Below are positions 170 through 64,000 of a stretch of 64,000 nucleotides of DNA, in pieces (the stretch's first letter is position 1; each line of letters begins with the position of its first letter). The DNA comes from an uncultured bacterium. GTDB taxonomy: Bacteria; Patescibacteriota; JACMRA01. The stretch spans positions 128,001 through 192,000 of the forward strand of contig OY969926.1 of the NCBI GenBank assembly GCA_963704645.1, in the 5' to 3' direction. The notes below the pieces were generated by a model, which did not search any database, was not told where the DNA came from, and worked only from the letters and a program-made list of their open reading frames with translations. The translations under genes and the position numbers were made by a program.

Positions 170-514
170 TTACTTATTTATTTTGCCACTCAACCTCTTA
201 ACAATTCTGCCAATACTAGAAATAGAGATATAGGAAGCATTGTTAATAAAAGAATATTGGTCGCACAGTTGTTTTATTTTTTTTCTGGTCATGCTAGGAA
301 ATTGGTCATATACTTTTTCTATAAATATTATTAATCTAGGATCTATTCTTGCTTTAGAATAATTAAAGCCGTAGTGATTTGTTTTTTGATTTAGTTTGTA
401 CACCCAATAATATATTGTAGATTTAGGTAATTTGTATTTTTCTAAAGTTTTTTGAATTCCATGCTGTAGTAAGAATTGCACTACCTCTTTTTTGAATTCG
501 GGCTGATGGAACAT
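170..514 (-). CDS. HTH protein resembling the N-terminal DNA-binding half of IS481/IS3-type transposases, no DDE domain
   Basis: HGIQKTLEKYKLPKSTIYYW first HTH and ISISSIGRIVKR second HTH-like segment; ends at 114 aa. Confidence 0.6.
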   Translation of the reverse strand: MFHQPEFKKEVVQFLLQHGIQKTLEKYKLPKSTIYYWVYKLNQKTNHYGFNYSKARIDPRLIIFIEKVYDQFPSMTRKKIKQLCDQYSFINNASYISISSIGRIVKRLSGKINK

Positions 515-745
515 TTGTAGCTAAAGTATTAGGGTTGATATAAGAAATTATACTAAAAGATATTTTCAAAACGAAAAAGTTTAAAGCGAAGAGGGTTTTG
601 TAAGAGTTTGTGCTTTTCCAAAGGAAGAGTATTTTTTAATCAAAATTAATATTTTATAAAATTAAGTTTAGTTATCTATAAAGTATGTCATATTGGTTAA
701 ATGTCTTTAAAGGTTGATTTGTTAAGTATCAACATGTCTGTAATT

Positions 746-925
746 TTAAGTTTGTTTGACAAGTTTTAGAATGGCTGATTGCAATTGTTTAGCATGACGT
801 GGAGAAAGAGTGGAAGATAATGCAATAGCAAGCTCTAACTCTTTAACAAGGGTAAGCAAATTTGTTATAGCTCTGTCATTACTTTTTTTTCGCCTAGAAC
901 TAACTGTTTTATTGTTATTCACCAT
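746..925 (-). CDS. small helical hypothetical protein, paralog of 53270..53440
   Basis: Shares LTLxKELELxxxLxxxLxPxH with the 53 kb ORF; ATG at 925 preferred over GTG at 934. Confidence 0.6.
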   Translation of the reverse strand: MVNNNKTVSSRRKKSNDRAITNLLTLVKELELAIALSSTLSPRHAKQLQSAILKLVKQT

Positions 926-1059
926 AATATTCACAAAAATACCCTAAAAAAATAAACTTTTTAAAAAGTGTTGTGATTTCTTAGGCGAGCAAAGATAAAC
1001 AAATTTGTTAGAGGTTGTCAAATATATTCCAGTTAACTCTGTATTCTTTTATTTATAAT

Positions 1060-2256
1060 ATGAACTCTTTTTCTCAAGCTGATGTGTCTAAACGTTGCAA
1101 TGTTACAAGAGCTACAGTGAATAGGTGGGTTGAATTAGCAAAAGAAAAAAAGAATAACTTACAACTAGATTTCTCTAACAAAATTGTTAGAATTTTAGAT
1201 TCTCCACACAACGACGTTGAGCTAAACAGATTAGCCAAAGAAGCCAAAAAGTATAGAAACAGCATTCCTGTAAAAGAAGTAGCAGTTTCAGAAGAATTTT
1301 ACGAGTATTTTAATGAGGAGGAAATTGTAGAAATTATTACAGATTTAGAGTTCAACAGAGAAGTTAATTTAAAGTTTGCCTACAGAAATGGAGGTGCTAA
1401 CAATTGGGACGGTTTTTATAAAAGTAACGTCTCGCCTATTAAGTCTGCAGTTAACCATTTTATAAATCAAATTGAAACAAGTATAAGTTATTTAGCTGGC
1501 GAAAATAAGCAACTAAATTTGATTGATATTGGCCCAGGAAACGGAGAGCCTGTAATAGAGTTAATTAGTAATATGATAAAAAAGGGTGTATTAAAAAGGT
1601 ACATTCCAATTGATATTAGCAATGAAATCATTCATATTGTTGAGAAATCTATAAAAAATAAATTTCCATTGTTAGATTTAAAATCATACCAAGCAGATTT
1701 AGAAAATGCCAGGTTTAAAAAAATCTTTTTAGAAAACAAGTTAAGCGAAGATAACGCCTCTAACTTTATAATTTTTTTGGGTAACACCATCGCCAATATA
1801 ATAGACAAAGTGCAGACTTTAAAAAATATACGTAAAGGTATGATTGAAGATGACATGCTGGCAGTAACTTTTTCCCTGGACAACGAGATAAATAAATCTA
1901 ATCTGAACTATGTTAAAACAAACGATGCAGATCAAATGCACTCTTTTATCCTCGAAAAAATGGGAGTGGATATAAGTAGATGTGATTTGTTAGTTGAATA
2001 TAACGAACAAGATAAATGTAAAACTAAATCTATCATTTTAGACAAAGATTACGCCATTCATTTTAATTTATTTGGCCAAAACAAGACTGTATTTTTAGAA
2101 AAGGATGAACCAATTATAGTTTGGAGGCACTATCTATCTAGCATGGAAGATTTTGTGTCTAATTTAGACGAGGTTGGTTTTGAAGTATTGGTCACTAGAA
2201 AAAGTAATGATTTAGCTAACGGCCTAGTTATATGTCAGATCAAGACAAATGAATAG
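1060..2256 (+). CDS. N-terminal HTH fused to EgtD-like (L-histidine N-alpha-methyltransferase family) SAM-dependent methyltransferase
   Basis: SQADVSKRCNVTRATVNRWV HTH; IDIGPGNG SAM motif, YIPIDIS, FLGNTIAN; ATG at 1060 preferred. Confidence 0.75.
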   Translation: MNSFSQADVSKRCNVTRATVNRWVELAKEKKNNLQLDFSNKIVRILDSPHNDVELNRLAKEAKKYRNSIPVKEVAVSEEFYEYFNEEEIVEIITDLEFNREVNLKFAYRNGGANNWDGFYKSNVSPIKSAVNHFINQIETSISYLAGENKQLNLIDIGPGNGEPVIELISNMIKKGVLKRYIPIDISNEIIHIVEKSIKNKFPLLDLKSYQADLENARFKKIFLENKLSEDNASNFIIFLGNTIANIIDKVQTLKNIRKGMIEDDMLAVTFSLDNEINKSNLNYVKTNDADQMHSFILEKMGVDISRCDLLVEYNEQDKCKTKSIILDKDYAIHFNLFGQNKTVFLEKDEPIIVWRHYLSSMEDFVSNLDEVGFEVLVTRKSNDLANGLVICQIKTNE

Positions 2257-2343
2257 ATTTCAAAGTTAAAAGACTACCAAGATTAAACCAATATACATTA
2301 ATCCCTTTGTTGAAACTGAATTATGCGACTTGATATTCTATCA

Positions 2344-2844
2344 TTATAATTTAATTTTTATAATGACCAATTTTACTAGCTTATAAACAAAGATGAATAA
2401 AATTACAGCCATCAAACTTATTGGAAATTGTTTAAAGACTATTTCAACAAAGATGTCATTTGCTGCATAGTTATAATGACATTCTAAATTATTTGGTATA
2501 AAATATTTATAGGAATAAATTAAATTTACTATCAGTGCTGTAAATGAAATGACAATCACATCAAAGTTTTGTAACAGTATTTTATTTTTTATAATTTGTT
2601 TTAGTTTATACAAAATTATTACAAAAACAACCGATATTATAAAGAAAAATATAAAGTTTGGTATTATGTTCAAATAGTTTTCAAGCCTATTTCTGCTTAC
2701 AGTATGAATAAATGGAAAGCCATAGCCTCTTATACAAAACTCTAATTCATTATCAGAAGAACCAAGGCTTCTTTCAAAAAAATGGAATACTGCGGTTAAA
2801 ATAATGGATAAGGGAATAGAGTATTTCAGAATTAGATTTAGCAT
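2344..2844 (-). CDS. four-TM membrane hypothetical protein
   Basis: Four hydrophobic segments, GYGFPF loop; last gene of the PA14-protein operon. Confidence 0.7.
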   Translation of the reverse strand: MLNLILKYSIPLSIILTAVFHFFERSLGSSDNELEFCIRGYGFPFIHTVSRNRLENYLNIIPNFIFFFIISVVFVIILYKLKQIIKNKILLQNFDVIVISFTALIVNLIYSYKYFIPNNLECHYNYAANDIFVEIVFKQFPISLMAVILFIFVYKLVKLVIIKIKL

Positions 2845-2851
2845 AAGTTTT

Positions 2852-3523
2852 TTACCATTCCCCAATAGAAATATTTTCCTTACCCTTTATATTTTGAATA
2901 TAGCCTAGCCATTTTTTATCGCCATAGCTTGTACTGGTTGGAATACAGGCTACAAAAGATGTGGTGTAACCTGGTGAATTATAATATTCGTTATACATAC
3001 CTTGTTGGTTAACAGAAGATGGGGTGTAATTTGGTATATTGAAATATTCTTTAATAGTATTGTTGGTTTGCTGAATAATACTTTTCTTTTCTTTTAAGCT
3101 TAAATTGTCCCAAATACTTTTGTCTTTAACATAAATTAAAGCATCTCCAGAATATGGAACTTCTTCAGGCTTGTACTCATTGGCATCTACCAATAGGAAA
3201 TTATATTTAGAGAGAGAAGAATTAATAATTTTATTTAGTTCGGGCGGAATTGGCGTTCGCATCGAATCATATTCAGACAATTTATATTTGCATATTGGAC
3301 TTAACTTAAAGGGCATGCCTCCACCTTCACTAGTTAAATAACTTATGTTAGTACTTATTCCAGCAAACTGTGGATCAAATAATATCTGGTAAGTTTCGTA
3401 GATTTTTATTCCCCCTCTATATAACAATATACTTGCAGGAATAATTAGTATAGCAATAAGTATTTTTAATTTTAAGCTAAGTTTTTTAAGGTTAGAAAGT
3501 TTGAATTTATTGAAAAAGGTCAT
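2852..3523 (-). CDS. membrane-anchored hypothetical protein, tandem paralog 2 (immunity-like)
   Basis: N-terminal TM; closely similar to 3589..4206 (YLTSEGGGMPFKLS, KSIWDNLSLKEKK, YGDKKWLGYI, SIGEW). Confidence 0.8.
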   Translation of the reverse strand: MTFFNKFKLSNLKKLSLKLKILIAILIIPASILLYRGGIKIYETYQILFDPQFAGISTNISYLTSEGGGMPFKLSPICKYKLSEYDSMRTPIPPELNKIINSSLSKYNFLLVDANEYKPEEVPYSGDALIYVKDKSIWDNLSLKEKKSIIQQTNNTIKEYFNIPNYTPSSVNQQGMYNEYYNSPGYTTSFVACIPTSTSYGDKKWLGYIQNIKGKENISIGEW

Positions 3524-3588
3524 ATTTTTAATTTTGTTTATAGGAGTTGCAACACCTTTTTAATTAGCTCAACATTTTCACAAAACAC

Positions 3589-4206
3589 CTACCACTCCCC
3601 AATAGACATTCTTTCTTTTCCTTTGAAGTTTTCAATGTAGCCTAACCATTTTTTATCTCCGTAACCCCTACTGTTTGGAGTGCAAGTAACAAATGATGTA
3701 GTATAACTTGGTTTATTAAAATATTCTTTTATATTATTATTAGTTTGTTGAATCATATCCTTTTTTTCCTTTAAACTTAAATTGTCCCAAATACTTTTAT
3801 CTTGAACATAAATTAAAGCGTCACCTGAATTTATATTTGTAGGTATAATATAAGTATTTGCATTTACCAACAAAAAATTGTATTTAGTAAGAGAGAGATT
3901 AATTTTTGTAGTTAACTCTTTAGGTATGGCTAAGCTTGTAGAAGTATATTCATTAAGGTCTACAATACACAAATCACTTAGCTTAAAAGGCATGCCCCCT
4001 CCTTCACTAGTTAAATAATCTATGTTGGTACTTATTCCAACAAACTCAGGATCAAATAATATCTGGTAAGTTTCGTAGACTTTTATTCCCCCTCTATATA
4101 CTAATATGCTTACAGGAATTATTAGTATTGCAATAAGTATTTTTAATCTTAGGCTAAGTTTAGTGAAGTTGATTAGTCTAACTTTTTTAAAGAAGGGTGT
4201 AGTCAT
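3589..4206 (-). CDS. membrane-anchored hypothetical protein, tandem paralog 1 (immunity-like)
   Basis: Starts 2 nt after the stop of the large PA14 protein; paralog of 2852..3523. Confidence 0.8.
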   Translation of the reverse strand: MTTPFFKKVRLINFTKLSLRLKILIAILIIPVSILVYRGGIKVYETYQILFDPEFVGISTNIDYLTSEGGGMPFKLSDLCIVDLNEYTSTSLAIPKELTTKINLSLTKYNFLLVNANTYIIPTNINSGDALIYVQDKSIWDNLSLKEKKDMIQQTNNNIKEYFNKPSYTTSFVTCTPNSRGYGDKKWLGYIENFKGKERMSIGEW

Positions 4207-4208
4207 AT

Positions 4209-7200
4209 TTAATTTTTTAATCTGGTTGGAACTGTGTTACAAGTCACATCATCCCAATAAAGTCTATCGATGGGAACTCGAGGTACATACTCATTACAGA
4301 CGTTATGTGTCTTACTAAATCTATTTTTGTATTCATTGGCAAAAGTTGAAACGCTTACTCTGTTTTCTCTTAGATCTTTGCCTAATTTTATGGCTTCATA
4401 ACTAGAAAATAAATCCATCCAGCTTGAACCATTCTCTGCAGGGTCTGGTAAAGTCCTATAAAACTGTGGAGGTACAAAAGTATTCTTTTTATAAGCTTCG
4501 TGGAACATTAACCACCATTCATTGGATCCAAATAAAGGTAATGGTAAGTTTACTCCAATAAAAGGATAACCAACCGAGTTTTGGCTATCACCTGCATACG
4601 CAAAGTTTATTCCTCCACCAGTATTATGCCATGCAAGGTTAGATTTAGTCCCCTCATCATCAAAAATATAATTGTAACCAGAAGAGCCATGAAATTCCAC
4701 TATATGGTAGGCTTCTTCATATACTGTACCTGCATTACACCCATCTATACTTATTATGCAATTTTTACCGGGTCTATTGGCAAAAACTGTTCCTAGATCG
4801 TAAATAAATCTGTCCTTGTTATTGGTACTTTGCCAAGATAGAGCAATAAAATTAGCACTTGCTACGTAAGCTTCCATTGTATTTTTACAGTAGGAATTCA
4901 TTAAAGTTCTTTCATTTAAAACAAATACAGCATTTAAAAACAATCTTTTTGGCTCATCTGAAGTATACCAATTAGAGTTTTTCTTATTATTTAGAAAAGA
5001 TTGTAGGTAGTTTAAATCTTGGCAGGACAGAAAAGTTGTTGATGGGTTTCGACCTGTCGTTGCTGTCCATATTGCTAAAACCATTTTAGCATGAAACTGA
5101 ATTTCCGTATCACACGATGCTGTACACTCTCTCTTTGCTAAATAATTATACAACCCATCATTAATTAAACTTTCTGCCTGCGAAAGATTCTTATTAAATC
5201 TCCCCCAAACACTACCCCACCCACCAATCTTAACATTGCCCGCTCTGTCTGTAATATTTATACTAAACTCAATATTCTGAGAGCTAGATACTTTGGTAAG
5301 ATCAATGTTGGCTGAATAAAGATAATCCACATTGTCGTTGTATTCTCTACCAAGGAATAATAATTTACTGTCGTAGTAGGCGTAGAAATCTACATAGCTT
5401 ACAAGACTTTGTGGTGTAGATAAATCCCAAGCCTCAGCTTTTACTGTAAAGTTGTTTCCTGTAATTGTTTGATAGTTTGCACTTGGGTTTATTATTCTTC
5501 CATCAGGTTTTATACTGTCTGTATACTCCCACCTCAAAGCAAAAGCGGCCTGTCCAGCATCTTCCCTAAACTTAACTTGAAGAAGATACCAACCTTCAGT
5601 AAGATATCTGTCTGTTCTGGTTTCAGAGCAACACCCAGGCTGATTAATTATCCTAGTTCCGTCTAATATAATTTCAGTTCCGTCATCAGCCTTTGAAATG
5701 AAAGTGAATGTGGAGGCCGGGAAATAATGCATTTTGGTAAAGTAACCAGAAAAGTTATCTGTTGGAAGGGAGCTTATTCCTGAAGGTGAGTTTAGGTAAG
5801 TTCCTGAAAAAGAATTTATTCCTCCCTTAGTTAAGTTTACAGTAGGATTATTATTCCCCCAGTTATCATCCCAAAAGTCCCCTAGTCTGGTTACTGGTTT
5901 TACAGGTATTCCTGTTTGATATTTGTTAGGGTAGAATTCTACACACCAGTCTGAGAAGTTATTATTGGTTTTACATGCTAGTTCCCAAGAAAGGGTTAGT
6001 TTAGCACTTCCTGTTTTTTCTTGATAGTATACTTCCATTACGTGCCAGCCTGTTGGTAGATCTATTCTGGTGTCAGTATCTGCGGCTGGGTTTTCCCATT
6101 TATCTATTACAATGTTTCCATTAATAACTAATTTCATTCCATCGTCGTAACCTGTATAGAATTTGTAATGACCTGATTCAAACCATTGTTTTTTACTAAA
6201 TTTAGCTGAGAAGTAATCAGAGGGGGTTACTCCTCCAGGGTTACCATAACCCCAATCTTTGTTAATGTAATCTGTTCTTCCAAGAGAATCTCTAGCAGGA
6301 TAATAGTTTTCAGAATAAGACATTATTCCAGAATAAGGATTGTTGTTGTAATATTGAGCACACCAGTTATCATAGGGAAGTTCTGGGTAGTTACATTCGT
6401 TGTATAAGGGAGTTCCTGTTATGGCTAGGGGTTGGACTGTGGGGGTGGTGGTAGCAAGGGAAGTGGTTGGAGCAAGTGTAGTTTTAGTCACTAAGGATTG
6501 AGTGGCTTCAGAAGGCGGAATTATTGGAGTTTGAGTTACTGGTTGAGGAGTATCAATAATTACTGGAGAAGTTACTGGAACCTGTGGAAGTGCTGGTTTA
6601 GGTGTAGGTATTGTAGGCCTAATAGGAGTTTGAGGCTCTGGTCTTTTCCATTCTTCCAGTCTCTTTTGTTTTTCTTGATGGGTTAGCGGAGTTTCTGGCT
6701 GAGTTGGAGGAATTGTTGGCTGAGGAGTTGGCGTAGTAGGTGGCTCTGGATTACTTGGAGGCTCAGGTTCGCCCTCACCTTCACAAAGTCCCTTCTCTAC
6801 TTTCAGAACAATGTCGTTAAAGTCATAGTCTAACCAATCTTCAAAAGAAAGTGAGTATGCATTGTTTCCTAGGTTTACTTGTTTAACTCTGCTGGAATCT
6901 GTAGAAAGAATGGTTTTAGGTGACTGTGAGTAGAAGGGAGTTATTTTAAGAATTAGATCTTGGCCTTGGGTGAAGTTACCAAGTGTAGGAGAGGAATTTA
7001 TTCCTCCTGTGGCATTTTGAACATCTGAAACCTTCTTGGTTGTTAAATCATTGTAGTTATCTGAAATTAGTTTGTCTGAACCGTCTTCGTTTACTCCTAC
7101 AAGGTAAAGTTTACCTCCTGCTCCATCATTACTTATTCTTGAAATGTAATAACAGCCTGTGCTTTGGATGCTTAGTTTGTTTGATGGAGTCTCAGGTGGT

Positions 7201-7457
7201 TCTTCCTGTGTAGCCAAGTCCTCTTGATCTTCTTCATTGGAAGAGTTAAGTTTAGATTGTCCTAACTCTTCAGTTTTAGGCCTATCTTTAGCATATTTAA
7301 TTTTAGCTGGGTCGTAATTATTAAAACTGGTTTTAGCACTTGTTGAAATTGAGAGTATTGGAGTTAATAGATTTAATATTATTAAAAAGGAGATAACAGT
7401 AAAAGAGAGAGTTTTCTGCCAATTTTGTTTTAAAAAGTTTAATTTATCTTTGTTCAT
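4209..7457 (-). CDS. large secreted/anchored protein: signal/TM, DUF4114-like, Pro/Thr linker, two PA14-like domains, Ig-like domain, unknown C-terminal domain
   Basis: FEDWLDYDFNDIVLKV; YDDGMKLVING..IDKW and ADDGTEIILDG (PA14 DD motifs) with DWGYG/NWGNN; ITDRAGN Ig-like end; ATG at 7457. Confidence 0.75.
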   Translation of the reverse strand: MNKDKLNFLKQNWQKTLSFTVISFLIILNLLTPILSISTSAKTSFNNYDPAKIKYAKDRPKTEELGQSKLNSSNEEDQEDLATQEEPPETPSNKLSIQSTGCYYISRISNDGAGGKLYLVGVNEDGSDKLISDNYNDLTTKKVSDVQNATGGINSSPTLGNFTQGQDLILKITPFYSQSPKTILSTDSSRVKQVNLGNNAYSLSFEDWLDYDFNDIVLKVEKGLCEGEGEPEPPSNPEPPTTPTPQPTIPPTQPETPLTHQEKQKRLEEWKRPEPQTPIRPTIPTPKPALPQVPVTSPVIIDTPQPVTQTPIIPPSEATQSLVTKTTLAPTTSLATTTPTVQPLAITGTPLYNECNYPELPYDNWCAQYYNNNPYSGIMSYSENYYPARDSLGRTDYINKDWGYGNPGGVTPSDYFSAKFSKKQWFESGHYKFYTGYDDGMKLVINGNIVIDKWENPAADTDTRIDLPTGWHVMEVYYQEKTGSAKLTLSWELACKTNNNFSDWCVEFYPNKYQTGIPVKPVTRLGDFWDDNWGNNNPTVNLTKGGINSFSGTYLNSPSGISSLPTDNFSGYFTKMHYFPASTFTFISKADDGTEIILDGTRIINQPGCCSETRTDRYLTEGWYLLQVKFREDAGQAAFALRWEYTDSIKPDGRIINPSANYQTITGNNFTVKAEAWDLSTPQSLVSYVDFYAYYDSKLLFLGREYNDNVDYLYSANIDLTKVSSSQNIEFSINITDRAGNVKIGGWGSVWGRFNKNLSQAESLINDGLYNYLAKRECTASCDTEIQFHAKMVLAIWTATTGRNPSTTFLSCQDLNYLQSFLNNKKNSNWYTSDEPKRLFLNAVFVLNERTLMNSYCKNTMEAYVASANFIALSWQSTNNKDRFIYDLGTVFANRPGKNCIISIDGCNAGTVYEEAYHIVEFHGSSGYNYIFDDEGTKSNLAWHNTGGGINFAYAGDSQNSVGYPFIGVNLPLPLFGSNEWWLMFHEAYKKNTFVPPQFYRTLPDPAENGSSWMDLFSSYEAIKLGKDLRENRVSVSTFANEYKNRFSKTHNVCNEYVPRVPIDRLYWDDVTCNTVPTRLKN

Positions 7458-7622
7458 ATAGTAATCTGTACCTGAATTGGAAATGATCAATTCTTCAGAT
7501 AAAGCTTATATATGTCTAAGATATTTTGTGTTCATTTTTGGACTGAGTTGTTAGGATGGGGAGAGGTGGGGAATTCGCTTAATACAATAATTAGAAAAGG
7601 ATGGTGTAAAAATTTATAACAT

Positions 7623-8423: not shown

Positions 8424-8441
8424 ATTTATTCAGTGTTTTTA

Positions 8442-10098: not shown

Positions 10099-10234
10099 AG
10101 GTAATATATTTTATAATTGGTGGTATAATTGAACAATTATTTTTTTAGTTTGAATTTTAGATCCAAATTAGTAAACAAATGTTATTGTAAAATTTTTAGG
10201 TAAGGCTAAATTATGAGAGTTTAAATCTTTATAT

Positions 10235-10675: not shown

Positions 10676-10686
10676 CAAAATTATAT

Positions 10687-10701
10687 TGCAACCTGGTTGC
10701 A
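10687..10701. promoter_or_regulatory. 7-1-7 palindrome, candidate Zur/Fur box in the zur promoter
   Basis: TGCAACC-T-GGTTGCA between minus-strand TTGACA (10705-10710) and TATAAT (10680-10685). Confidence 0.55.
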
Positions 10702-21378: not shown

Positions 21379-21379
21379 T

Positions 21380-53162: not shown

Positions 53163-53269
53163 GCTTAAAAATTAACATAAAAATTGAATTTAGCAAGTAT
53201 TTTGACATTCAACATGTTATGCAATACAATTATATAATCTTAACAGAGCACAAAACACAAATAAATATT

Positions 53270-53440: not shown

Positions 53441-53621
53441 AAATTGGAGTTTCAGATTAAATTTGAAAATTACTTGCCTGCTCGGCACTGTAATTAATTT
53501 ATGACATCTCTAATAATTAACATAATTGAGACAGCCTGATTTTTAATAGTTGAGCAGTACTTTAAATCAGTTTAGATCTAATTTATATATAGAAAACGGA
53601 TATAAGATTTTAAATATTATT

Positions 53622-54191: not shown

Positions 54192-54280
54192 TAATTTTAG
54201 AATAGTGATCAATGTACAGCATGTCAAAAAACACCTAAAATTAAATTGACAAAGGAAATTGGTTTAGGCAAAGTTAGGGT

Positions 54281-57130
54281 ATGTTTCTGGCTAGATCATT
54301 TTCCCACCACTCACTTCTTTCCAGCATTCCACAAGTTCCAGCTTTAATTAAAAATGCCAAGGAAAAGGGCTATACCAGCATTGCCCTAACCGATGAAGAT
54401 ACTGGCTCTGGGTTGATTGAATTTTATGATATCTGCAAAAAGGAAGGTATAAAACCAGTTTTGGGTGCAACCCTTAGAATTCCAAATTTCGGCCAAGAAA
54501 AAAACGTATTTGGTAGAAACGCCAGTTTCAGTAAAATTGCTATTCTGGCTAAAAACGAAAACGGCTACAGAGCTTTGCTGGAATTAATTTCTACTGCCAG
54601 AACAATTCAAGAACAACCAACTTACCACATAACTTTTGATAATTTAGAAAAATTTGTTCAACCAAACGAGGCGGAGATAAGTTTAGAAAATAAAATAAAT
54701 TTAGACTTTTTTATTTTTCTTGGTGGAAATGATCACGAAATTATTCAACTGGTCAGAGCAAACAAAATTCAGCAAGCAAAAGTAGTTTTAGAAAAATATT
54801 GGCAGAAGTTTGGATCTGCAAATATATTACTAGGGCTAGCTTTTCCGCTAATTGATGAAAGTGAAGATGAGGTTAAGAAAATAAATTTGGAATTAAATCA
54901 ACTATGTAAAGCTTTACAAATTAAAGTACTAGCTAGTCCTGATCCCAGGTATTTGGAAGAGGATGACGAAGAAGCTTTTAAAGTAGTTCTTGCCATTAGG
55001 GAACAAAAAAAATTGTCAGAAATTAATTTAACCCGACACTTTAGCTTACCCAGTGTAGAAAAACTGAAGGCTAATTTCGGCTATCTTCCTGAAGCTGTAG
55101 AAACAAATTTGATTGAAGAGCAAATTAACATTGAAATTCCAACCAGCTTCGATAAAAATGCTGATGGAGCCTACTTCCCAATTTACATTCTACCCGAAAA
55201 CGAAAACCCAGCAGACAAACTTGCTTGGGAAAGTTACATAGGCTTGCTGGACCGATTCGCACCCGAAAAACTTGGCAGGCAAGAATGGGCAGAAAAATTT
55301 CCTTACGAAAAGCTAGTCGAACTAAAAAGTTTTGTTACCAATTTAACCCCAAATTCTAAAGATTTGCCTGGTTACCCTGAAGAATATTGGGGGAATAGAG
55401 AACAAATGCATATTTACATTGAACGCACAGAAACCGAGTTGGAAGTTATTGTTACAAAAGGTTACGCTGATTACTTTTTGGTGTTCGCTGATATCATGCA
55501 ATTTTGCAGAAATAATGGAATTGTTATTAATACTCGTGGTTCTGCAGCTGGTTGCTTGGTTGGTTTTTTAACAGGAATAAATATTTTAGATCCTCTTCTT
55601 TATAATTTACCTTTTGAAAGATTTTTAAATCCATTTAGACCTTCACCTCCAGATATTGACGGAGATTTTGCAGACGATAGGCGTGGAGAAGTAATTGATT
55701 ATATTACAAAGAAATATGGTAACCATAAAGTATGCCAAATTGTAACTTTTGGAACCATGTTGCCCAAAGCTGCGGTACGAGATGTAGGTAGAGTTTTAGG
55801 AATTTCTTATGGAAAATGTGATAGATTATCTAAGCTTATTCCAACAGCACCTCAGGGTAGAAAAACTAACTTTAAATGGGCCTTTGAAACCAGCGAAGAA
55901 TTAACACAAGCTTATGAAAAAGATGAAGAAGTTAGAAGAATGATTGATATTGCTAAAAAGGTTGAAGGGAACTATAGGCACGCTTCTGTTCACGCCGCAG
56001 GTGTTATTATTGCACCCGACAAATTAACCAAATTTGCACCTTTACAGTGGGACTCTGAACACCAAATGATTATTTGCCAATACGATATGCGTGTTGCTGA
56101 AAAAGCAGGTTTGGTAAAAATGGATATTCTAGGAATTACGAACCTTTCTATTTTAGGAAATGCAGTGCAACTAGCCCAAGAAAGACACAACATTCATATT
56201 GATCTACAAAAAATTGATACCACCAATAAACAGTCTTTTGAACTGTTAGCCAAAGGTAGAACCATGGGAACTTTTCAGCTTTCAGGACCAACCATGACTA
56301 GATATTTGGTAGATTTAGAGCCAACCAAGGTTCAAGATTTAATGGCTATGGTAGCATTATATCGTCCTGGGCCTATGGGCAGTATTCCTGAATATATTCG
56401 CCGTAAAAAAAATCCTAAGCTAGTAAAATATATTGTTCCGCAAATGGAAAAATGGATGGCTCCAAGCTTTGGTATTTTTGTTTATCAAGAAGATTTACTT
56501 TTTACAGCTATTGAACTAGCAGGATACGACTGGGGTAAAGTAGATGTTTTAAGAAAGGGAATGGGTAAAAAAATTCAATCAGTTATAGATGAACAAAAAC
56601 CTATATTTATTGAAGGTGCTATCCAAAAATCTGGTTTAAGCCGGGAGAAAGCAACAGAAATTTGGGAACTTATGGTGCCCTTTGGTGCATATGGTTTTAA
56701 CAAAGCTCACTCTTCTAATTATGGCATGGTGGCATATTGGACGGCATACATGAAGGCAAATTATTCTGTAGAATTTATGACAGCTTTAATGACCAGCGAA
56801 GCCAGTGATTTAGACAAAATTGCCACTGCAATTAAAGAGTGTAAAGAGCTTGGACTAACTGTACTTCCCCCAGATGTAAATTTATCTTATAATTCTTTCA
56901 CTATAGAAAATAACAAAACTATAAGATACGGCCTTGCCAGTGTTAAAAATTTAGGGAAAGACGTAATTGCCTTTCTAACTAATGAGCGAAAAACTAATGG
57001 AAACTTTATTAGTTTAGAAGATTTTGTTCAGAGGTTAAGTGCCAACAAAGGTTTCAGTAAAAGATCTTTGGAAGCTCTAATTTGGTCTGGTGCGTTAGAC
57101 TCACTAGGCGCTAAAAAATTGAGGACTTAG
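54281..57130 (+). CDS. dnaE: DNA polymerase III alpha subunit, C-terminally shortened
   Basis: RGSAAG, FERFLNP.R..PPDIDGDF, HAAGV, KMDILG, LYRPGP, YGFNKAHS. Confidence 0.95.
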   Translation: MFLARSFSHHSLLSSIPQVPALIKNAKEKGYTSIALTDEDTGSGLIEFYDICKKEGIKPVLGATLRIPNFGQEKNVFGRNASFSKIAILAKNENGYRALLELISTARTIQEQPTYHITFDNLEKFVQPNEAEISLENKINLDFFIFLGGNDHEIIQLVRANKIQQAKVVLEKYWQKFGSANILLGLAFPLIDESEDEVKKINLELNQLCKALQIKVLASPDPRYLEEDDEEAFKVVLAIREQKKLSEINLTRHFSLPSVEKLKANFGYLPEAVETNLIEEQINIEIPTSFDKNADGAYFPIYILPENENPADKLAWESYIGLLDRFAPEKLGRQEWAEKFPYEKLVELKSFVTNLTPNSKDLPGYPEEYWGNREQMHIYIERTETELEVIVTKGYADYFLVFADIMQFCRNNGIVINTRGSAAGCLVGFLTGINILDPLLYNLPFERFLNPFRPSPPDIDGDFADDRRGEVIDYITKKYGNHKVCQIVTFGTMLPKAAVRDVGRVLGISYGKCDRLSKLIPTAPQGRKTNFKWAFETSEELTQAYEKDEEVRRMIDIAKKVEGNYRHASVHAAGVIIAPDKLTKFAPLQWDSEHQMIICQYDMRVAEKAGLVKMDILGITNLSILGNAVQLAQERHNIHIDLQKIDTTNKQSFELLAKGRTMGTFQLSGPTMTRYLVDLEPTKVQDLMAMVALYRPGPMGSIPEYIRRKKNPKLVKYIVPQMEKWMAPSFGIFVYQEDLLFTAIELAGYDWGKVDVLRKGMGKKIQSVIDEQKPIFIEGAIQKSGLSREKATEIWELMVPFGAYGFNKAHSSNYGMVAYWTAYMKANYSVEFMTALMTSEASDLDKIATAIKECKELGLTVLPPDVNLSYNSFTIENNKTIRYGLASVKNLGKDVIAFLTNERKTNGNFISLEDFVQRLSANKGFSKRSLEALIWSGALDSLGAKKLRT

Positions 57131-57158
57131 AAATTGGTTACTTGAAACTTATAGCCCA

Positions 57159-57881
57159 TTACTTAGATTCTAAAGCCGGAAAAGGAGATACAATTTCAGC
57201 CAGTGTGTTTGCACTGGTATATTTCTTAGTCTCCACAACTGGCTCAGCTTGCACTTTCTGTACAGGTTTGACCTCTTCCTCTTTTGCCTTGCTGTCTGAC
57301 ACCTGAATCTCGTCTGATTTTGGATTGCTCTCTTCAACTGGTTTTTCCTTCGCAGCTATTTCTCTTCTACCAAAAGTCTGAGCTACGAAAATAGTTGGAA
57401 AATCGTTTAAAGTTCCATATTCCACAGCAAGACCAGTCTCTACAAAACCACTATTTAAAATGTTGTCTCTGTGGGTTGGAGAATTCATCCAAGCCTCTAC
57501 CATACTTTCTACACTGTCATAACCATTAGCTAAGTTTTCCCCAGCCTCAACATATACATATCCTGCCTCTTTAATAAAGTTAGACCACTTTCTTCCATCT
57601 ACAGGTGACACATGTGAAAAGTATTTTTTATCTGACATGTCTTTAGCCTTGTTTCCTGCCGCCACCATTAACTGATCATTAACAATTAAAGGCTTCAGAT
57701 TGTTTTTAATTCTTTCCTGATTTACAGCTACAATAATTTGATTAGCACTATAGCCTTCTGCCTTGGCAATTTTGGTAGTTTTACTGCTTTCAAATAACAA
57801 GAAACTAAACACAGTTAAAGCTAACAGGCAGGATATTGCTGTTAGCCATATAAGCCATTTTGTGTTTGTTTTGTTGGTCAT
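57159..57881 (-). CDS. CAP/SCP domain protein, membrane anchored
   Basis: NQER, KAKDM..YFSH, AGENLA, WMNSPTHRDNIL. Confidence 0.9.
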   Translation of the reverse strand: MTNKTNTKWLIWLTAISCLLALTVFSFLLFESSKTTKIAKAEGYSANQIIVAVNQERIKNNLKPLIVNDQLMVAAGNKAKDMSDKKYFSHVSPVDGRKWSNFIKEAGYVYVEAGENLANGYDSVESMVEAWMNSPTHRDNILNSGFVETGLAVEYGTLNDFPTIFVAQTFGRREIAAKEKPVEESNPKSDEIQVSDSKAKEEEVKPVQKVQAEPVVETKKYTSANTLAEIVSPFPALESK

Positions 57882-58528
57882 TACTTTTTAAATAAAATGT
57901 TTTCAATTTCTTCTGCCGAATCTACCAAATAGAATAAACTCATAATATCTGCAGCAACTGTTTTTCTACTTTTCAATAAAATGTTTTGTATCCATTCAAT
58001 GTAACCTACCCAGAAACTACTTTCAAACAAGAAAATTGGTTTACTTGGGTATTTGTTAGTTTTAATCAGGGTTAATAATTCCATTAATTCATCCAAGGTG
58101 CCAATTCCACCAGGACAAAATATAAATGCGTCGCTTTGCCTAAGCATATATTTTCTTACCGAAAATTGAGTAAATATAATAGAAGTATCGGCATCTTCCA
58201 TAGCCAATGGTTCATCTGGAATATCTATACAAAAAGCCACAGCCTTTCCACCAGCCAACCTAGAACCAAGCAATGCCGCTTTCATAATTCCAGGCCCGCC
58301 GCCAGAAACAACACTCCAACCTTTGGAAGCAACCATTTTTGCTATTTGTTGAACGTTTTCAAAAGTGCTTTCCTCCGACTTAATTAAGGAGCCACCATAA
58401 AAGGTTACAGTCTTGCTGGCCAGAGTGTTTAAAGCCAACATTCCCAACTTATATTCATCATTAATTTTGTGTAAAAGATAAAACTGATCCTCGCTTAAAG
58501 TCTCGTTTTGTAGGTTTATCTGATTCAT
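57881..58528 (-). CDS. LOG family (Rossmann-fold nucleotide-binding) protein
   Basis: SGGGPGIM, RK, PGGIGTLDE. Confidence 0.9.
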   Translation of the reverse strand: MNQINLQNETLSEDQFYLLHKINDEYKLGMLALNTLASKTVTFYGGSLIKSEESTFENVQQIAKMVASKGWSVVSGGGPGIMKAALLGSRLAGGKAVAFCIDIPDEPLAMEDADTSIIFTQFSVRKYMLRQSDAFIFCPGGIGTLDELMELLTLIKTNKYPSKPIFLFESSFWVGYIEWIQNILLKSRKTVAADIMSLFYLVDSAEEIENILFKK

Positions 58529-58629
58529 AATTTAATTATACCATAGATGTAGTAGCTGGGCAATAAAAACCTGTAGATTAGGGAAACATATCTTGACAAA
58601 CCAACTTTAAAATACAAAATTACATTTAT

Positions 58630-59157
58630 ATGCACCCACACAATTTATATTTTCTACCTTCTGGGGAAGTAAACAAATTTAATGTGATAATTGAAATTCC
58701 TTACGGAAGTCAGAACAAATACGAATTAGACCCAGAAACAGGAGCTCTATTTTTAGACAGAGTTTTATACTCTTCTGAATTTTACCCTTTTAACTATGGC
58801 TTTATTCCTTCAACCAAAGCTCCAGACGGCGATGCTTTAGATGTTGCTGTTTTACTTACAAATCCGGTCCCTCCAAACACTGTTGTTGTATCTAGAGCTA
58901 TTGGAATTTTAAAGAAAATTGATTCCGGCGACCAAGACGATATGATTTTAGCTGTACCAGTTAACGACCCAAGATTTAAAGATATTACAGATTACACTCA
59001 GTTGCCAGCACATAAACTTTTGGAAATTGAAGATTTCTTTGCGAACTACAAAAGACTACAGAATAAGAAGTGTGAAATTGTGGGATTTGCAGGAAAAATA
59101 GAGGCTGAACAAGAAATTGCTAGACATTTAAATAATTACCCTTCATTTAAAAAATAA
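58630..59157 (+). CDS. ppa: inorganic pyrophosphatase (family I)
   Basis: IEIP, KYELD, LDR, YPFNYGFIP, DGDALDV. Confidence 0.95.
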   Translation: MHPHNLYFLPSGEVNKFNVIIEIPYGSQNKYELDPETGALFLDRVLYSSEFYPFNYGFIPSTKAPDGDALDVAVLLTNPVPPNTVVVSRAIGILKKIDSGDQDDMILAVPVNDPRFKDITDYTQLPAHKLLEIEDFFANYKRLQNKKCEIVGFAGKIEAEQEIARHLNNYPSFKK

Positions 59158-59161
59158 CATT

Positions 59162-59386
59162 ATGAACACACAAGATATACTACTTTGGGGCCAAGGAATT
59201 ACATTAGTACTTTCTATTGTCCTAATTTTAATGCAAAACCGCGGAGCCAGTTTAGACAGTGCTTTCGGCGGAAGAAACGAAATCTATTTAACCCGAAGAG
59301 GTATTGAAAAAAGCGTTGTAAATCTTACAACTATAGCTGTTGTATCCTTCGTAGTTTTAAGAATTTTAAGTCTTTATATAGTTTAA
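59162..59386 (+). CDS. secG: preprotein translocase subunit SecG
   Basis: ILMQNRGASL..AFGG, TRRGIEK, two TMs. Confidence 0.88.
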   Translation: MNTQDILLWGQGITLVLSIVLILMQNRGASLDSAFGGRNEIYLTRRGIEKSVVNLTTIAVVSFVVLRILSLYIV

Positions 59387-59719
59387 GTTAGCTAGAAATA
59401 GTATATTGTGATGAAGTCTGTGACTCGATCGCATAATTTGGTGTTTGTGTAAACAATGGTATTTAGTTGCGAGCAAAGCTCAAGAACAACTCACCACTAT
59501 TTCAGTTTGCATAGTGTAATAAATATAAACTTTTTCATACGATGTATAGAGTCTAGCGTAAATTGAGTTTATAGAATTAGAGATGTTTCCATTTCTAAAG
59601 CTTTTAAAAAGAGTATATATTTTTTTGAAACTTAATACAACAATTTTGCATAGTCATAATTGCAAAAGTAATCTTCTTGACAAGATAATTACTGAATACC
59701 ATGTTTAGAGAACAAGTAT

Positions 59720-60898
59720 ATGTCCGAAACAAGCCAAAAACAACCTACAATGGCAGATTTGCTGCTTCATGTAGAAAAAGCCCTATCTGTATCTATTGGT
59801 GAAACCGTAAAAGGTAAAGTATTTTTTATTTCTAAAAGCCAAGTTCTAATTGATTTAGAAAACTTTGGAATTGGAGTAGTAAGAGGAAGAGAATTATATA
59901 ACGAAGAATATCTTTCCAGATTAAAATTGGAAGAAGAAATTGAAGCTGTTGTTGTAGATTTAGACAACGAAATGGGAATGGTAGAATTAAGTTTCCGCGC
60001 TATTGGACACGACAAAGTTTGGTCTGAAATTAAAGAAAATTACGAAGGAGAAAAAATTATTGATGCAAAAATTAAAGACGCCAACAGAGGAGGTTTCCTT
60101 GTAAAAGTTAACGGTGTAGACGGTTTCTTACCTGCTTCATTGCTTTCCCCTACCCACGCTGTTAAGCAAAACAGCGTTGAAGATAAAAGTATTTTGAACC
60201 AAATGAAAAAATATGTTGGTCAAATTTTTAAAGTTAAAATTATTAGTATTAACCCTGATGCCGACACTTTCATTGTTTCAGAAAAAGCTGTAAGCGACGA
60301 AATGGCTCAAGCCAAATTATCTAAGTACAATGTTGGAGATGTTATTGAAGGTACAGTTGTTGGCTCTGTAGACTTTGGTGTTTTTGTAAGATTCGATAAA
60401 GATTTAGAAGGTTTAGTTCATATTTCAGAAATTGCTTGGAAGAAAATTGAAGATCCTAAAACTGAATTTAAAATTGGCGACCCAGTTAAGGCTAAAATTG
60501 TTGAAATTGATAAAGAAAATAGAATTAACTTATCTGTTAAACAGCTTCTTCCTAACCCTTGGGTAGAATTTGCTAAAACTGTTAAACCAGGAGACAAATT
60601 TGCTGGAACTGTAAGCAAAATTGTTACTTACGGAGCAATAATTGTTAACGACGAAGATATTCAAGCTTTGTGCCATATTTCTCAACTAAGCAAAACACCT
60701 CTAGAAAGCCCAGCTAAAATTCACGAAGTTCTTAGAATTGGAGAAAAGAAAGACTTTACAGTTTTATCTATTGATTCAGACGAAAAGCTATATCTTACAT
60801 TATTAGACTTAGCAGAAGCCAAAGCCATTCAAGATGATATAACTGCTAAACAAAAAGAAAGACAAGATAATTCTGAAAACTTCAACGAAGAAAGCTAA
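59720..60898 (+). CDS. rpsA: 30S ribosomal protein S1 (four S1 domains)
   Basis: NRGGFLV..GFLPAS, DFGVFV..EGLVHISEIAW. Confidence 0.9.
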   Translation: MSETSQKQPTMADLLLHVEKALSVSIGETVKGKVFFISKSQVLIDLENFGIGVVRGRELYNEEYLSRLKLEEEIEAVVVDLDNEMGMVELSFRAIGHDKVWSEIKENYEGEKIIDAKIKDANRGGFLVKVNGVDGFLPASLLSPTHAVKQNSVEDKSILNQMKKYVGQIFKVKIISINPDADTFIVSEKAVSDEMAQAKLSKYNVGDVIEGTVVGSVDFGVFVRFDKDLEGLVHISEIAWKKIEDPKTEFKIGDPVKAKIVEIDKENRINLSVKQLLPNPWVEFAKTVKPGDKFAGTVSKIVTYGAIIVNDEDIQALCHISQLSKTPLESPAKIHEVLRIGEKKDFTVLSIDSDEKLYLTLLDLAEAKAIQDDITAKQKERQDNSENFNEES

Positions 60899-60900
60899 TT

Positions 60901-62418
60901 ATGAGTAAACACTCTCCTATTTCTAAACTAACCCACCTTAAATTAGGGCAGGGTAATTCTGAACCAAGAAACTTTGGCAATAAAACACCATTACAGGCCA
61001 GGCCAGAAGTGGCAATCTCTCAAGAAGAGATAACTGGCTTAAATCAGTCTAAACACGAAATGAAAAACATGGAGAGTGTTGAAAAAGTTGATGTTGAAAT
61101 GAACAAAGCAGACGAATGGTCTTTCCCAACTAGTAATCATTCTCAGTTTACAAAAAAGTTTGCCGAAGAAGAAACTATACCTACAACTAATAAAGTTCGT
61201 TTGCCTAAGTTTTTAGAGCAAAACAAAATAATTCAAAGTGTTACAAACAACATTGATAGTGATGTAAAAATGCTTCCTTTTAGCGGAAATAATGAAAACC
61301 CAAACTCTTTCAGCTCTATTTTTAGTAAAGATCACGAGGAAATAACTGGAATTAGAAGAGTTTTTAGGAAGTCGTTAATATTTTTAGTTTTGCATATTCT
61401 TTCATTGCTATTGCTTGCTTGGACAGGTTTAACTTTGTTTACAGTCAACCCAATTATTAGCTTAGTAAGTTTTGTTGTTTTTGCAGCAGTTACTAATCTT
61501 TTTTATATAATTGTTGCTGACAGAAGTTATGTTAGTTTAAGCCTTGTAGGCTCTGCTGTAGGGCTACTTTTAATATATAGTTTCTTAGGTCAAGCTTTTA
61601 ACCCTGTAAGTTTAGCTGGCGTAGCAATTGTGAGTTTGCTTTTTTATATTGCATACAGCGAAATAGAGAAAGTGCAGCTTAGTAGCAGACTATTTACTAT
61701 ATCAAATATAGTTGGCTCTGGGACAAGAATTCTAATGAGTGCTGGTATATTGGTTCTAGCCCTAACCATGTTTAACCAAATGCTGTCAGAAAAAAGTGCT
61801 AACTTTATTAACAGAACAATATTAAACAATGAATTAATAATATCTAAATTAATTGTTGGAGAAGGCTCACCTGTTTCTTTAAATAGGCTTACAATGAACG
61901 GCGCCGCTTTTTATTCTACTTTAGAAACAAATGCAACTAAAACTACATTTAAAGATTTTCTTGCAACAAATTATAGAAGAGGTGAAGATGTAGTAAGCAA
62001 AAATGAAGAGCCTGAAATAATTATTTCTTGTGAAAACCAAAAAGGGTCTGGGAAATGTGGAAATGCAGTTGTAGAAGCTAGAAATGAAAGACTGGAAAAG
62101 TTCAGATCGGAAAACTATGCTGGTTTACCTTATAACCTTGACACATCTTTGAACACAGACAATTTCAGAGAAATAAGTAAGCAATATTATTTAAACATAA
62201 TTAATGAATTTGATAGTGGAAGCAATATTATTATTCCAAGAGTTTATCTACTTCCAGGAATCTTTGCCCTATTAATTTACATTTTGCTAAGTCTTATTTC
62301 TCCAATACTTTCTATTATAATTCAATTTCTTACATGGTCAGGTTGGCAAATTATGAAAGTTACTGGATTTGCTAAAATTGAAGTAGAGACAGTAGAATCT
62401 GAAGTTGTTAGTATTTAA
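60901..62418 (+). CDS. polytopic membrane hypothetical protein
   Basis: Disordered N-terminus, about five TMs, soluble loop, C-terminal TM. Confidence 0.7.
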   Translation: MSKHSPISKLTHLKLGQGNSEPRNFGNKTPLQARPEVAISQEEITGLNQSKHEMKNMESVEKVDVEMNKADEWSFPTSNHSQFTKKFAEEETIPTTNKVRLPKFLEQNKIIQSVTNNIDSDVKMLPFSGNNENPNSFSSIFSKDHEEITGIRRVFRKSLIFLVLHILSLLLLAWTGLTLFTVNPIISLVSFVVFAAVTNLFYIIVADRSYVSLSLVGSAVGLLLIYSFLGQAFNPVSLAGVAIVSLLFYIAYSEIEKVQLSSRLFTISNIVGSGTRILMSAGILVLALTMFNQMLSEKSANFINRTILNNELIISKLIVGEGSPVSLNRLTMNGAAFYSTLETNATKTTFKDFLATNYRRGEDVVSKNEEPEIIISCENQKGSGKCGNAVVEARNERLEKFRSENYAGLPYNLDTSLNTDNFREISKQYYLNIINEFDSGSNIIIPRVYLLPGIFALLIYILLSLISPILSIIIQFLTWSGWQIMKVTGFAKIEVETVESEVVSI

Positions 62419-62437
62419 TAATTGTTTAAACTACAGG

Positions 62438-64000
62438 TTATTTAATCATTTTCTCACCACTAATTTGATGATAGTATTCCACCATTTGGTTATTCTGATT
62501 TACAAAGCTTACTTTGACAGAATATTTCTTTAGCGGGTTTAAAGTTGGCTCTTTTATTGTAATAGAATTGTCTGTGGAGGCTTGGAATTTGTACTGTCTA
62601 TCCCCGTCAAAAACTATGGCTTCAGGCTGACCGAGTGTAGAAGCCAAAACCTGTATTGTGCAGCCTAAATCGCTGTTACACCACAAAACATCATCTTTAT
62701 TGCTTGTTACAAGGTATGTGAACTCTTTTAAAATAAAGTTTCCATCTAATAATTGAATTGTGTAGTTACCAACCGCACCACCAACTTCTACATAACAAAC
62801 ATCACCTTGCCAATGAGTAAGAAGAATTTTTGTATCTGCCCTATCTGATAACTGTCTTACATTGCAGCTATTAGATTTAAAACTAAATGTTTCAAAACTA
62901 CCTTCTGACAAAATGTTACTTCCATCTAATAAAGTAATGTTTTCTGGAATATTAGAAATATCATACTTGCCCAAGAATGTTGAGATTACATTGGTTCTGC
63001 TAACTGATATTGGGCTAGATTTAGCTTCTATTGCCAGTTCTAAAATTTGACCTCCTAAAACAGATCTAAGATCGTTAGTATCTAGCTTGTTGGCTGACAG
63101 AGATAGGTTAGACAAACCTTCAGTAATTTCAACATCAGAAATTTTACCGTTATAAGATAATCTTAATTTACCACTTTTAATTGGTAAACCAAACTTATCT
63201 AAGATAGGACTAGTTAATATTTGATAATCTAATTCTTGATTATTCCCAATTCTTGTGCTTGCACCCATAGCAAAAATATTTCCAGCTTCACCACTCGTTA
63301 AATTAACTATTGAATTAAATGTTTTAGTTCCTGCAGTAATTTTAACAAGAGCTTGCTTTGTGTTTCTATATTGAGTTAAATCCCAATCTAAATTGCACTT
63401 TTTGTTAGCATTATCGTAAGGCATGGAAGTACTGGCAACTTCAGTTTCAGATTTCACCCATTCAAAATTACAATTGGCAATTTCTTCCTCAAAACCACCC
63501 ATACTAATTTTTAGCTTGCTATCACCATTTAATTCTTTAGGTATATTTGGTAATATTAACTTATCGTCTTCTACAACTGTAAAAGATTGACTCATTAACA
63601 AATTTCCGTCTGCTGCAAAAGCTTGAATTTGTAAATTATCTTGACTGAACAAACTAGATGGTAAAACTATTTTAGCAAAACCATTAATAATATCTACAGG
63701 CTGAGTTGTTTGCACAAGTTCAGAGGATCTGGTTACTTCAATTTTAACTCCAAACTGGTTGGTTAAGTTTCCAAAACTATCTGTAACAGGACCAATAATT
63801 AAAGTATTGGCAAAATTTCTATGCGCTGGTTCATACTCTAATTTCAAACCGCCAAAACTAGTAGCTCCATTTGCGAATACATTAAATTGCTTGCTTTGAC
63901 TGTATTCTGGGAAGCTAATTAAAGCAGGGCCACTTTGCACCAATTGATTATTCTGTGTTACCACTTTACACACACCATCCTGCAAATTTCCCTTAAGTTC
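62438..64000 (-). CDS. 3' part of a large beta-rich surface protein (runs off window end)
   Basis: Open frame over 515 aa reaching the window edge; beta-strand-rich with paired Cys. Confidence 0.65.
   Translation of the reverse strand, partial: ELKGNLQDGVCKVVTQNNQLVQSGPALISFPEYSQSKQFNVFANGATSFGGLKLEYEPAHRNFANTLIIGPVTDSFGNLTNQFGVKIEVTRSSELVQTTQPVDIINGFAKIVLPSSLFSQDNLQIQAFAADGNLLMSQSFTVVEDDKLILPNIPKELNGDSKLKISMGGFEEEIANCNFEWVKSETEVASTSMPYDNANKKCNLDWDLTQYRNTKQALVKITAGTKTFNSIVNLTSGEAGNIFAMGASTRIGNNQELDYQILTSPILDKFGLPIKSGKLRLSYNGKISDVEITEGLSNLSLSANKLDTNDLRSVLGGQILELAIEAKSSPISVSRTNVISTFLGKYDISNIPENITLLDGSNILSEGSFETFSFKSNSCNVRQLSDRADTKILLTHWQGDVCYVEVGGAVGNYTIQLLDGNFILKEFTYLVTSNKDDVLWCNSDLGCTIQVLASTLGQPEAIVFDGDRQYKFQASTDNSITIKEPTLNPLKKYSVKVSFVNQNNQMVEYYHQISGEKMIK

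Follow-up and report, generated by a model that had tools for sequence, protein, structure and literature searches.

In a 64,000-nucleotide stretch of DNA from an uncultured bacterium of the Patescibacteriota lineage JACMRA01 (the window; bases 128001–192000 of the contig of the source genome, G000), genes end in TAA or TAG, and analysis of the whole genome revealed a depletion of TGA stop codons that is more extreme than most described cases. We consider it probable that the bacterium uses the standard code, with UGA still a stop codon that is read by an intact release factor 2 (RF2) and strongly selected against, termination being centred on release factor 1 (RF1) and RF2 being under relaxed constraint. 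We would class the state as a stop-codon bias that is extreme and maintained by selection, one that approaches codon capture without having entered its vacant stage.

Stop-codon usage in the window and across the genome

Within the window, 68 non-overlapping open reading frames (ORFs) of at least 80 amino acids (aa) span positions 170..62418, cover 89.9% of the DNA and end in 45 TAA, 23 TAG and 0 TGA codons. This mechanical set agrees with the preliminary description of the stretch, which had tallied 51 TAA, 25 TAG and 0 TGA among 76 genes (shorter ones included) and whose probability arithmetic (0.9^76, approximately 3e-4) was correct. At the TGA share found in other classes of the phylum (19%), the probability of finding no TGA among 68 stops is 6e-7, whereas at the rate of G000 itself (19/800) it is 0.20, and thus the window is typical of G000 while G000 itself is anomalous.

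The genome is a single contig of 1,272,640 bp (33.4% GC; estimated completeness 87%), and its ORFs ended as follows:

Raw ORFs of at least 100 aa: TAA 663, TAG 410, TGA 101
Raw ORFs of at least 150 aa: TAA 477, TAG 320, TGA 35
Raw ORFs of at least 300 aa: TAA 232, TAG 171, TGA 8 (8/411)
Raw ORFs of at least 500 aa: TAA 94, TAG 72, TGA 4
Non-overlapping ORFs of at least 80 aa: TAA 653, TAG 401, TGA 46 (n=1100)
Non-overlapping ORFs of at least 150 aa: TAA 466, TAG 315, TGA 19 (n=800)
ORFs of at least 100 aa with a codon-usage score of at least 0.1: TAA 560, TAG 368, TGA 25 (n=953)

The TGA share shrinks with growing ORF length and gene-likeness, which suggests that many of the short TGA-ending ORFs are spurious. 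The proposal that TGA is never a stop codon fails outside the window, where 8/411, 19/800 or 25/953 ORFs end in TGA depending on the set. The broader idea of a genome-wide abandonment holds in part: the avoidance is real, far beyond chance and not compositional, but with 19 of the 800 ORFs of at least 150 aa ending in TGA it is not absolute.

The depletion reflects selection and not AT pressure, because TAG is high, TGA is common out of frame and relatives of similar GC content use TGA as a stop. Among ORFs of at least 150 aa in G000, TAG/(TAA+TAG) was 0.403 and TGA/(TAA+TGA) was 0.039, with G representing 0.155 of purines at 4-fold sites and 0.17–0.28 in two-fold A/G codon pairs; composition predicts 85–181 TGA per 466 TAA, and 19 were observed. 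Over both strands of G000 there are 36,580 TGA trinucleotides versus 44,763 TAG, and the out-of-frame counts in long genes were 8803 TGA versus 11143 TAG. Relatives from other classes with 34–36% GC ended 3/29 (G024), 7/27 (G022) and 3/17 of their ORFs in TGA.

The avoidance also persists between species. Sampling of 160 kb from the sister species G001 (genome approximately 1 Mb) yielded 142 ORFs, 123 of them with a match in G000, and 69 co-terminal pairs (median identity 73%), which comprised 25 TAA/TAA, 9 TAG/TAG and 33 TAA versus TAG pairs. TGA appeared in two of the 69 pairs, in one species each, and no TGA stop was common to G000 and G001. TAA and TAG have been exchanged to saturation while TGA was kept out of both genomes, which indicates that TAA-to-TGA changes are purged.

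The class of G000 contains 27 species-level genomes in the reference set, in one order and two families (26 + 1). In a database search the G000 RpoB matched at least 118 clusters at 57–91% identity, with the next matches at only 48%, and judged by this similarity the class is a deep, well-populated lineage of the candidate phyla radiation (CPR; Patescibacteria). Close RF2 and RpoB homologues carry the NCBI labels ‘Patescibacteria group bacterium’ and ‘bacterium’, with ‘Candidatus Gracilibacteria bacterium’ and ‘Thermales bacterium’ once each. Stop counts from 14 genomes of the class (ORFs of at least 150 aa, de-duplicated) gave TGA 35/571 versus 40/211 in eight genomes of other classes (Fisher p 4e-7, the genomes not being independent), and ranged within the class from 1/113 (G001) to 6/44 (G005). 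The TGA share is approximately 2% in G000, 1% in its sister species, 6% in the class and 19% in other classes of the phylum. 

The nearest genomes outside the class by RpoB belonged to many ordinary families at 45–48% identity (a similarity ranking, not a phylogeny). No recoded genome and no rpoB with an in-frame TGA was found among the matches listed (the best 150 for rpoB in each of two phylum samples, of 200 and 400 genomes), and families f18, f69 and f41, whose rpoB match pattern was common with the class, showed no in-frame TGA; RF2 is present in f18 and f69. A separate observation concerns G028, a genome of another class (47% GC; loci L036 and L037), in which 19/30 stops were TAG and 2/30 TGA, and an RF1-centred, low-TGA/high-TAG state may recur in the phylum.

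Tests for TGA as a sense codon

The second part of the preliminary claim, that TGA is not read as glycine or tryptophan either, was supported: no tRNA with a UCA anticodon was found, read-through brought no gain and rpoB, prfA and prfB of G000 contain no in-frame TGA, as is the case for rpoB in all 27 genomes of the class. The three long ORFs that had been cited as free of in-frame TGA are indeed open under table 11, and with the sole tRNA gene of the window (detected by ARAGORN) they are:

44529..51896, minus strand: 2455-aa RHS-repeat protein, ending in TAA (PF05593, E 2.4e-146)
4209..7490, minus strand: 1093-aa PA14-domain protein, ending in TAA
54281..57130, plus strand: 949-aa DnaE, DNA polymerase III alpha subunit, ending in TAG
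24469..24545, minus strand: tRNA-Ile(GAT)

Further genes of the window (FtsH, MnmA, PGK, S1) are ordinary. Reading TGA through across G000 gave 1122 ORFs in place of 1100, and the coding fraction was 87.4% compared with 86.6% under table 11. In the 154 read-through ORFs that contained a TGA, the codon lay mostly a few codons from an ORF end, either ahead of the true start or at the genuine stop. Two TGA codons had long open stretches on either side, and both separate adjacent genes in one frame: a transposase-like gene that ends TGA TGA with the leuS start 40 codons on in the same frame, and a 161-aa ORF that precedes a patatin gene. Selecting TGA codons flanked by 60 open codons per side returned 513 sites, mostly alternative frames of real genes among which the codon score did not discriminate, and this approach was abandoned.

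ARAGORN at its standard threshold detected 41 tRNAs and a transfer-messenger RNA (tmRNA) in G000, including one tRNA-Trp (CCA) and tRNA-Gly with GCC, TCC and CCC anticodons; at this threshold neither the window nor the genome contained a UCA-anticodon or suppressor tRNA. Lowered thresholds, under which a hidden tRNA-UCA might have appeared, gave 274 and 2400 implausible calls with kilobase ‘introns’, which were regarded as noise.

Some side observations arose from these searches. Three 137-aa ORFs of the read-through set (G000:C1:374986-375396, 393479-393889 and 1243098-1243508) have in-frame TGA codons at identical positions and are probably copies of one repeated element in the wrong frame. 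The false low-threshold tRNA calls recur approximately 1218 bp apart at G000:C1:1265333-1270851, near the contig end, which hints at a tandem array of ~1.2-kb units. A tRNA-Ile with anticodon TAT lies at G000:C1:1155868-1155945 and the whole set holds just two CAT tRNAs; it thus seems that AUA is decoded through UAU and that no lysidine-modified CAU tRNA serves it.

Genes that end in TGA

A Pfam scan of the 20 longest TGA-ending ORFs of G000 identified ordinary genes among them, namely those for TatD, a DegT aminotransferase, a class I/II aminotransferase, a GT2 glycosyltransferase and an HD_4 hydrolase. The match to TatD covers profile positions 2–253 of 253, right up to the TGA, and because the TatD and DegT genes end in TGA where the orthologues in sister species G001 have their C-termini, TGA is a rare but working stop codon. 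The suggestion that UGA stands vacant was consequently not borne out, given these two conserved ends and the transposase-like gene that closes with TGA TGA before leuS.

Other TGA-ending ORFs were less ordinary. Three IS200-like/REP-type transposase-like ORFs (G000:C1:88358-89071, 1003298-1003945 and 1164194-1164904) have codon scores of 0.02–0.07 versus a genome median of 0.21, one of them ending TGA TGA, and they look like imported genes that keep the donor's stop codon. A further TGA-ending ORF is a truncated Type ISP fragment, and a serine recombinase ORF (528 aa, G000:C1:73645-75242) runs into an opposite-strand tRNA-Ala(GGC), suggestive of a mobile element inserted at that tRNA gene. A +1 frameshift near 1112701-1112708 breaks an rpoD-like sigma-70 gene (G000:C1:1111590-1113700) in two and thereby creates a false TGA ‘stop’; the orthologues in G001, G002 and G019 are one ORF each of 739–745 aa, and an indel in the assembly, decay into a pseudogene or a programmed shift may account for the split.

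Missed TGA-ending genes were sought in the window among ORFs of at least 40 aa outside the accepted genes, with two ORFs to report:

42628-42840, minus strand: 70-aa orphan ORF with a GTG start, the sole TGA-ending ORF of at least 60 aa outside the accepted genes
59185-59307, plus strand: 40-aa ORF ending in TGA, codon score -0.36

The TGA of the 70-aa ORF shares bases, in a TTGA overlap, with the TTG that opens a 118-aa ORF (42275-42631, minus strand), both being orphans. The 70-aa ORF had no Pfam match and no homologue in G001, G002, G037, G008 or G017, and could be a genuine small gene or one half of a frameshifted gene, the other half being the 118-aa ORF.

Release factors

The two bacterial factors can be told apart by their tripeptides, SPF in RF2 and PxT in RF1, in addition to the GGQ motif of both. 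In G000, the RF2 (prfB) model TIGR00020 matched prfB at G000:C1:223703-224740 (plus strand) with 361.9 bits against a curated cut-off of 370, in one frame without stops; the 363-aa ORF has SPF and GGQ and the Pfam domains PCRF and RF-1, scored only 202 bits against the prfA model and has RF2 chains as its best solved relatives (E 4e-69). The gene for RF1, prfA, lies at 617874-618923 (minus strand) and encodes 357 aa with PAT and GGQ. The suggestion that RF2 may have been lost is therefore refuted by this uninterrupted gene. Of the two facts that together were to refute the preliminary reading, the genome shows one, an intact prfB, but not the other, as its TGA frequency outside the window is not normal. 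The alternative that RF2 is weak fared better, being compatible with an RF2 that evolves faster than RF1.

A prfB-type match was found in 31/31 genomes searched, G000 included (25/31 above the cut-off); among 20 class genomes searched, 15 exceeded the TIGR00020 cut-off, and in each of the 27 class genomes the prfB model matched two release factors, or fragments of them. The programmed +1 frameshift of prfB was not found in G000, where model positions 3–349 were matched in a single uninterrupted frame. A candidate RF1-specific frameshift site, a TAG inside prfB, was rejected as an artefact, as in G026 the stop falls at matched codon 2, upstream of the start.

SPF and GGQ are kept in every RF2 of the class that was read. 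The residue nine positions after SPF (SPF+9), where the histidine of RF2 contacts the stop codon, is Glu in 17/17 class RF2s with a readable motif (SPFNxxxTRETSF) and in 116/120 of the nearest database homologues, whereas the solved RF2s in the alignment have His; in other classes of the phylum, His (3), Gln (6) and Glu (1) occur.

Weighing of the explanations

Conservation of the two factors differs. Between G000 and G001, sequence identity is 84.6% for RF1 and 61.6% for RF2, at the 86th and 28th percentiles of 117 orthologues, respectively. In our reading RF2 would be under-used and under relaxed constraint, cause being inseparable from effect: low demand would relax RF2, and a weaker RF2 would disfavour TGA. 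Within the class, RF2 was less conserved than RF1 in 168/171 pairs (means 50.2% versus 58.4%, matched ranges aligned), compared with 24/55 pairs from 11 genomes of other classes (48.4% versus 47.7%); weighing against the reading, the pairs share history and the other-class control pairs are deeper than the class pairs, the decay specific to RF2 is visible only within the class, and against curated models the two factors of the class are about equally divergent (RF2 335–415 bits, RF1 352–389 bits). To the same side belong the nature of the ORF sets, which are mechanical (the longest ORFs picked greedily without overlap, with no trained gene finder), the sampling of relatives at 18–160 kb each rather than as whole genomes, and the outcome for each candidate cause. 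In-frame backup stops are no closer after TGA than after TAA or TAG, with medians of 13 and 11 codons, respectively (n=25; Mann-Whitney p 0.46). The His-to-Glu change in RF2 is not a sufficient cause, as G022 has Glu yet ends 7/27 ORFs in TGA. A missing PrmC was rejected, with PrmC-like genes in 20/20 class genomes searched (92–184 bits versus a cut-off of 199) and no PrmC match at E 1e-10 in the TGA-using G022 (7/27) and G024 (3/29). A missing RF3 does not discriminate, prfC being above the cut-off in 0/31 genomes, TGA users included, and a 4-bp anticodon stem of tRNA-Trp was discarded since the stem has 5 bp, with a U-G wobble as its top pair. No proximate cause of TGA avoidance was thus found among PrmC, RF3, the tRNA-Trp stem, RF2 SPF+9 and backup stops. 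As a side observation, the best prfC matches (144–216 bits, in frames of ~700 aa) were taken as EF-G-like GTPases.

On the explanation that we consider probable, termination is centred on RF1, with TAA and TAG ending ~98% of genes and TAG exceeding its compositional expectation, and RF2 has little work left, being kept but under relaxed constraint. UGA termination may be less efficient or less accurate than that at UAA and UAG, through a low amount or activity of RF2 or through near-cognate reading by tRNA-Trp(CCA), in which case new TGA stops would be purged owing to this inefficiency. Low demand and a weakening RF2 could then reinforce each other, as on the route predicted by codon capture, without having arrived at RF2 loss and a vacant UGA.

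A variant of this explanation has a normal RF2 and a UGA that is leaky through tRNA-Trp(CCA) or the ribosome, so that TGA stops are selected out. PMC13092985 reports fewer UGA stops in genomes that have no tRNA-Trp(CCA) other than one with a 4-bp anticodon stem, and both the wobble pair and the failure to find RF3 in any of the 31 genomes would fit; however, a stem of 5 pairs does not belong to that type, TGA-using relatives likewise gave no RF3, no enrichment of backup stops was seen and the faster evolution of RF2 than of RF1 is left unexplained, and we regard the variant as unlikely. It is quite unlikely, in our view, that UGA is functionally vacant, meaning that the RF2 of the class (SPF...TRETSF) has ceased to read UGA to any useful extent and persists for the sake of UAA or other tasks, with TGA ‘stops’ being recent mutations, foreign genes or artefacts at which translation ends through stalling and rescue or at a stop further downstream. 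The Glu at SPF+9 in the class and its homologues where solved RF2s have His, the fast evolution of RF2, the several TGA-ending ORFs that are not ordinary (three IS200-like, the Type ISP fragment and the frameshifted rpoD), the TGA stops unshared between G000 and G001 and the presence of tmRNA are consistent with vacancy, but five TGA-ending genes (TatD, DegT, class I/II aminotransferase, GT2, HD_4) are ordinary and the first two co-terminal with their orthologues, nearby backup stops are not in excess, G022 uses TGA despite its Glu, and SPF/GGQ are conserved with prfB kept in all class genomes.

Two further alternatives were weighed. Mutational bias, by which AT pressure in a reduced genome of 33% GC would have lowered TGA with no selection on termination, agrees with the low GC content, with TAA as the commonest stop and with the view, given in PMC8629427, that low GC cuts UGA use before reassignment; yet TAG makes up 40% of TAA+TAG against a G share of 16–28%, TGA falls 4–9 times under expectation and is common out of frame, other-class relatives of similar GC stand at 10–26% TGA, and TAA/TAG turnover between the sister species is saturated while TGA stays out, which makes this explanation very improbable. 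Reassignment of UGA to Gly (code 25) or Trp (code 4), with the codon used very rarely, we find hardly credible: code-25 lineages occur in the same phylum (PMC13695967, PMC13293708) and one near RF2 homologue bears the Gracilibacteria label at NCBI, but there is no tRNA-UCA in G000, RF2 is present, real genes contain no mid-gene TGA, coding density does not gain and rpoB of the 27 class genomes is free of in-frame TGA.

Implications

In the usual view, UGA falls into near disuse before it is reassigned; few natural examples with RF2 still in place are available, and these are usually blamed on AT pressure. In G000 the depletion is extreme, non-compositional, maintained between sister species and accompanied by faster RF2 evolution, in a phylum that includes UGA=Gly lineages; the order of events, with depletion and RF2 relaxation ahead of RF2 loss, becomes testable, the cell is viable with ~98% of its termination readable by RF1, and predictors of the translation table will find genomes of this kind difficult. 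More speculatively, and with considerable reserve, the genus might represent a late intermediate, still alive today, on the way to losing a stop codon, produced by selection and not by AT pressure, with UGA purged to 1–2% of gene ends and its RF2 present but drifting. If so, the order would run from RF1-centred termination to UGA depletion, then to RF2 decay, and only then to RF2 loss and UGA capture, and if the class were also close kin of the UGA=Gly lineages, this would be the state from which code 25 arose.

Comparison with known systems

A literature search that was not exhaustive found no description of near-absent TGA stops with RF2 retained in Patescibacteria, and the supplementary tables of PMC12421855 and PMC13695967 may already list this lineage. 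Flavobacterium johnsoniae, as reported in PMC12421855, has 7% RF2-specific stops and keeps prfB; it resembles G000 in its standard code, the presence of RF2 and an unusually low share of RF2-specific stops, whereas in G000, a reduced CPR bacterium, the share is ~2%, prfB has no frameshift and TAG rather than TAA fills the gap. The same article describes Acholeplasmataceae and phytoplasmas (Mycoplasmatota) with low TGA and a frameshift-less prfB, relatives of which lost RF2 and recoded UGA, and its authors suggest that the RF2 of Acholeplasmataceae is possibly decaying. Low GC, low TGA use and a prfB retained without the frameshift motif are common to both; the phylum is different, and here the conservation of RF2 was measured as relaxed relative to RF1.

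Within the phylum, the code-25 lineages Absconditabacterales and BD1-5 correspond to the GTDB class JAEDAM01, sister to the table-11 class Gracilibacteria (PMC13695967, PMC13293708). They share with G000 a small, low-GC genome in which UGA is no longer a common stop, but are described as having no RF2, a tRNA-Gly(UCA) and in-frame UGA (PMC13695967, PMC13293708, PMC8629427), whereas G000 has RF2 and neither that tRNA nor sense UGA. The Codetta authors noted NCBI ‘Gracilibacteria’ with RF2 for which no UGA meaning was inferred (PMC8629427). Bacteria with the 4-bp-stem tRNA-Trp (PMC13092985) are similar in that UGA stops are reduced but non-zero and RF2 is retained, and differ from G000 in the stem, which here has 5 pairs with U-G at the top. 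Codon capture, proposed by Osawa and Jukes in 1989 and summarised in PMC8629427, where low codon use is also discussed as a facilitator of reassignment, invokes directional mutation pressure; G000 matches it in the very low use of a codon ahead of any change of meaning and departs from it in that the loss is not accounted for by composition and the release factor persists.

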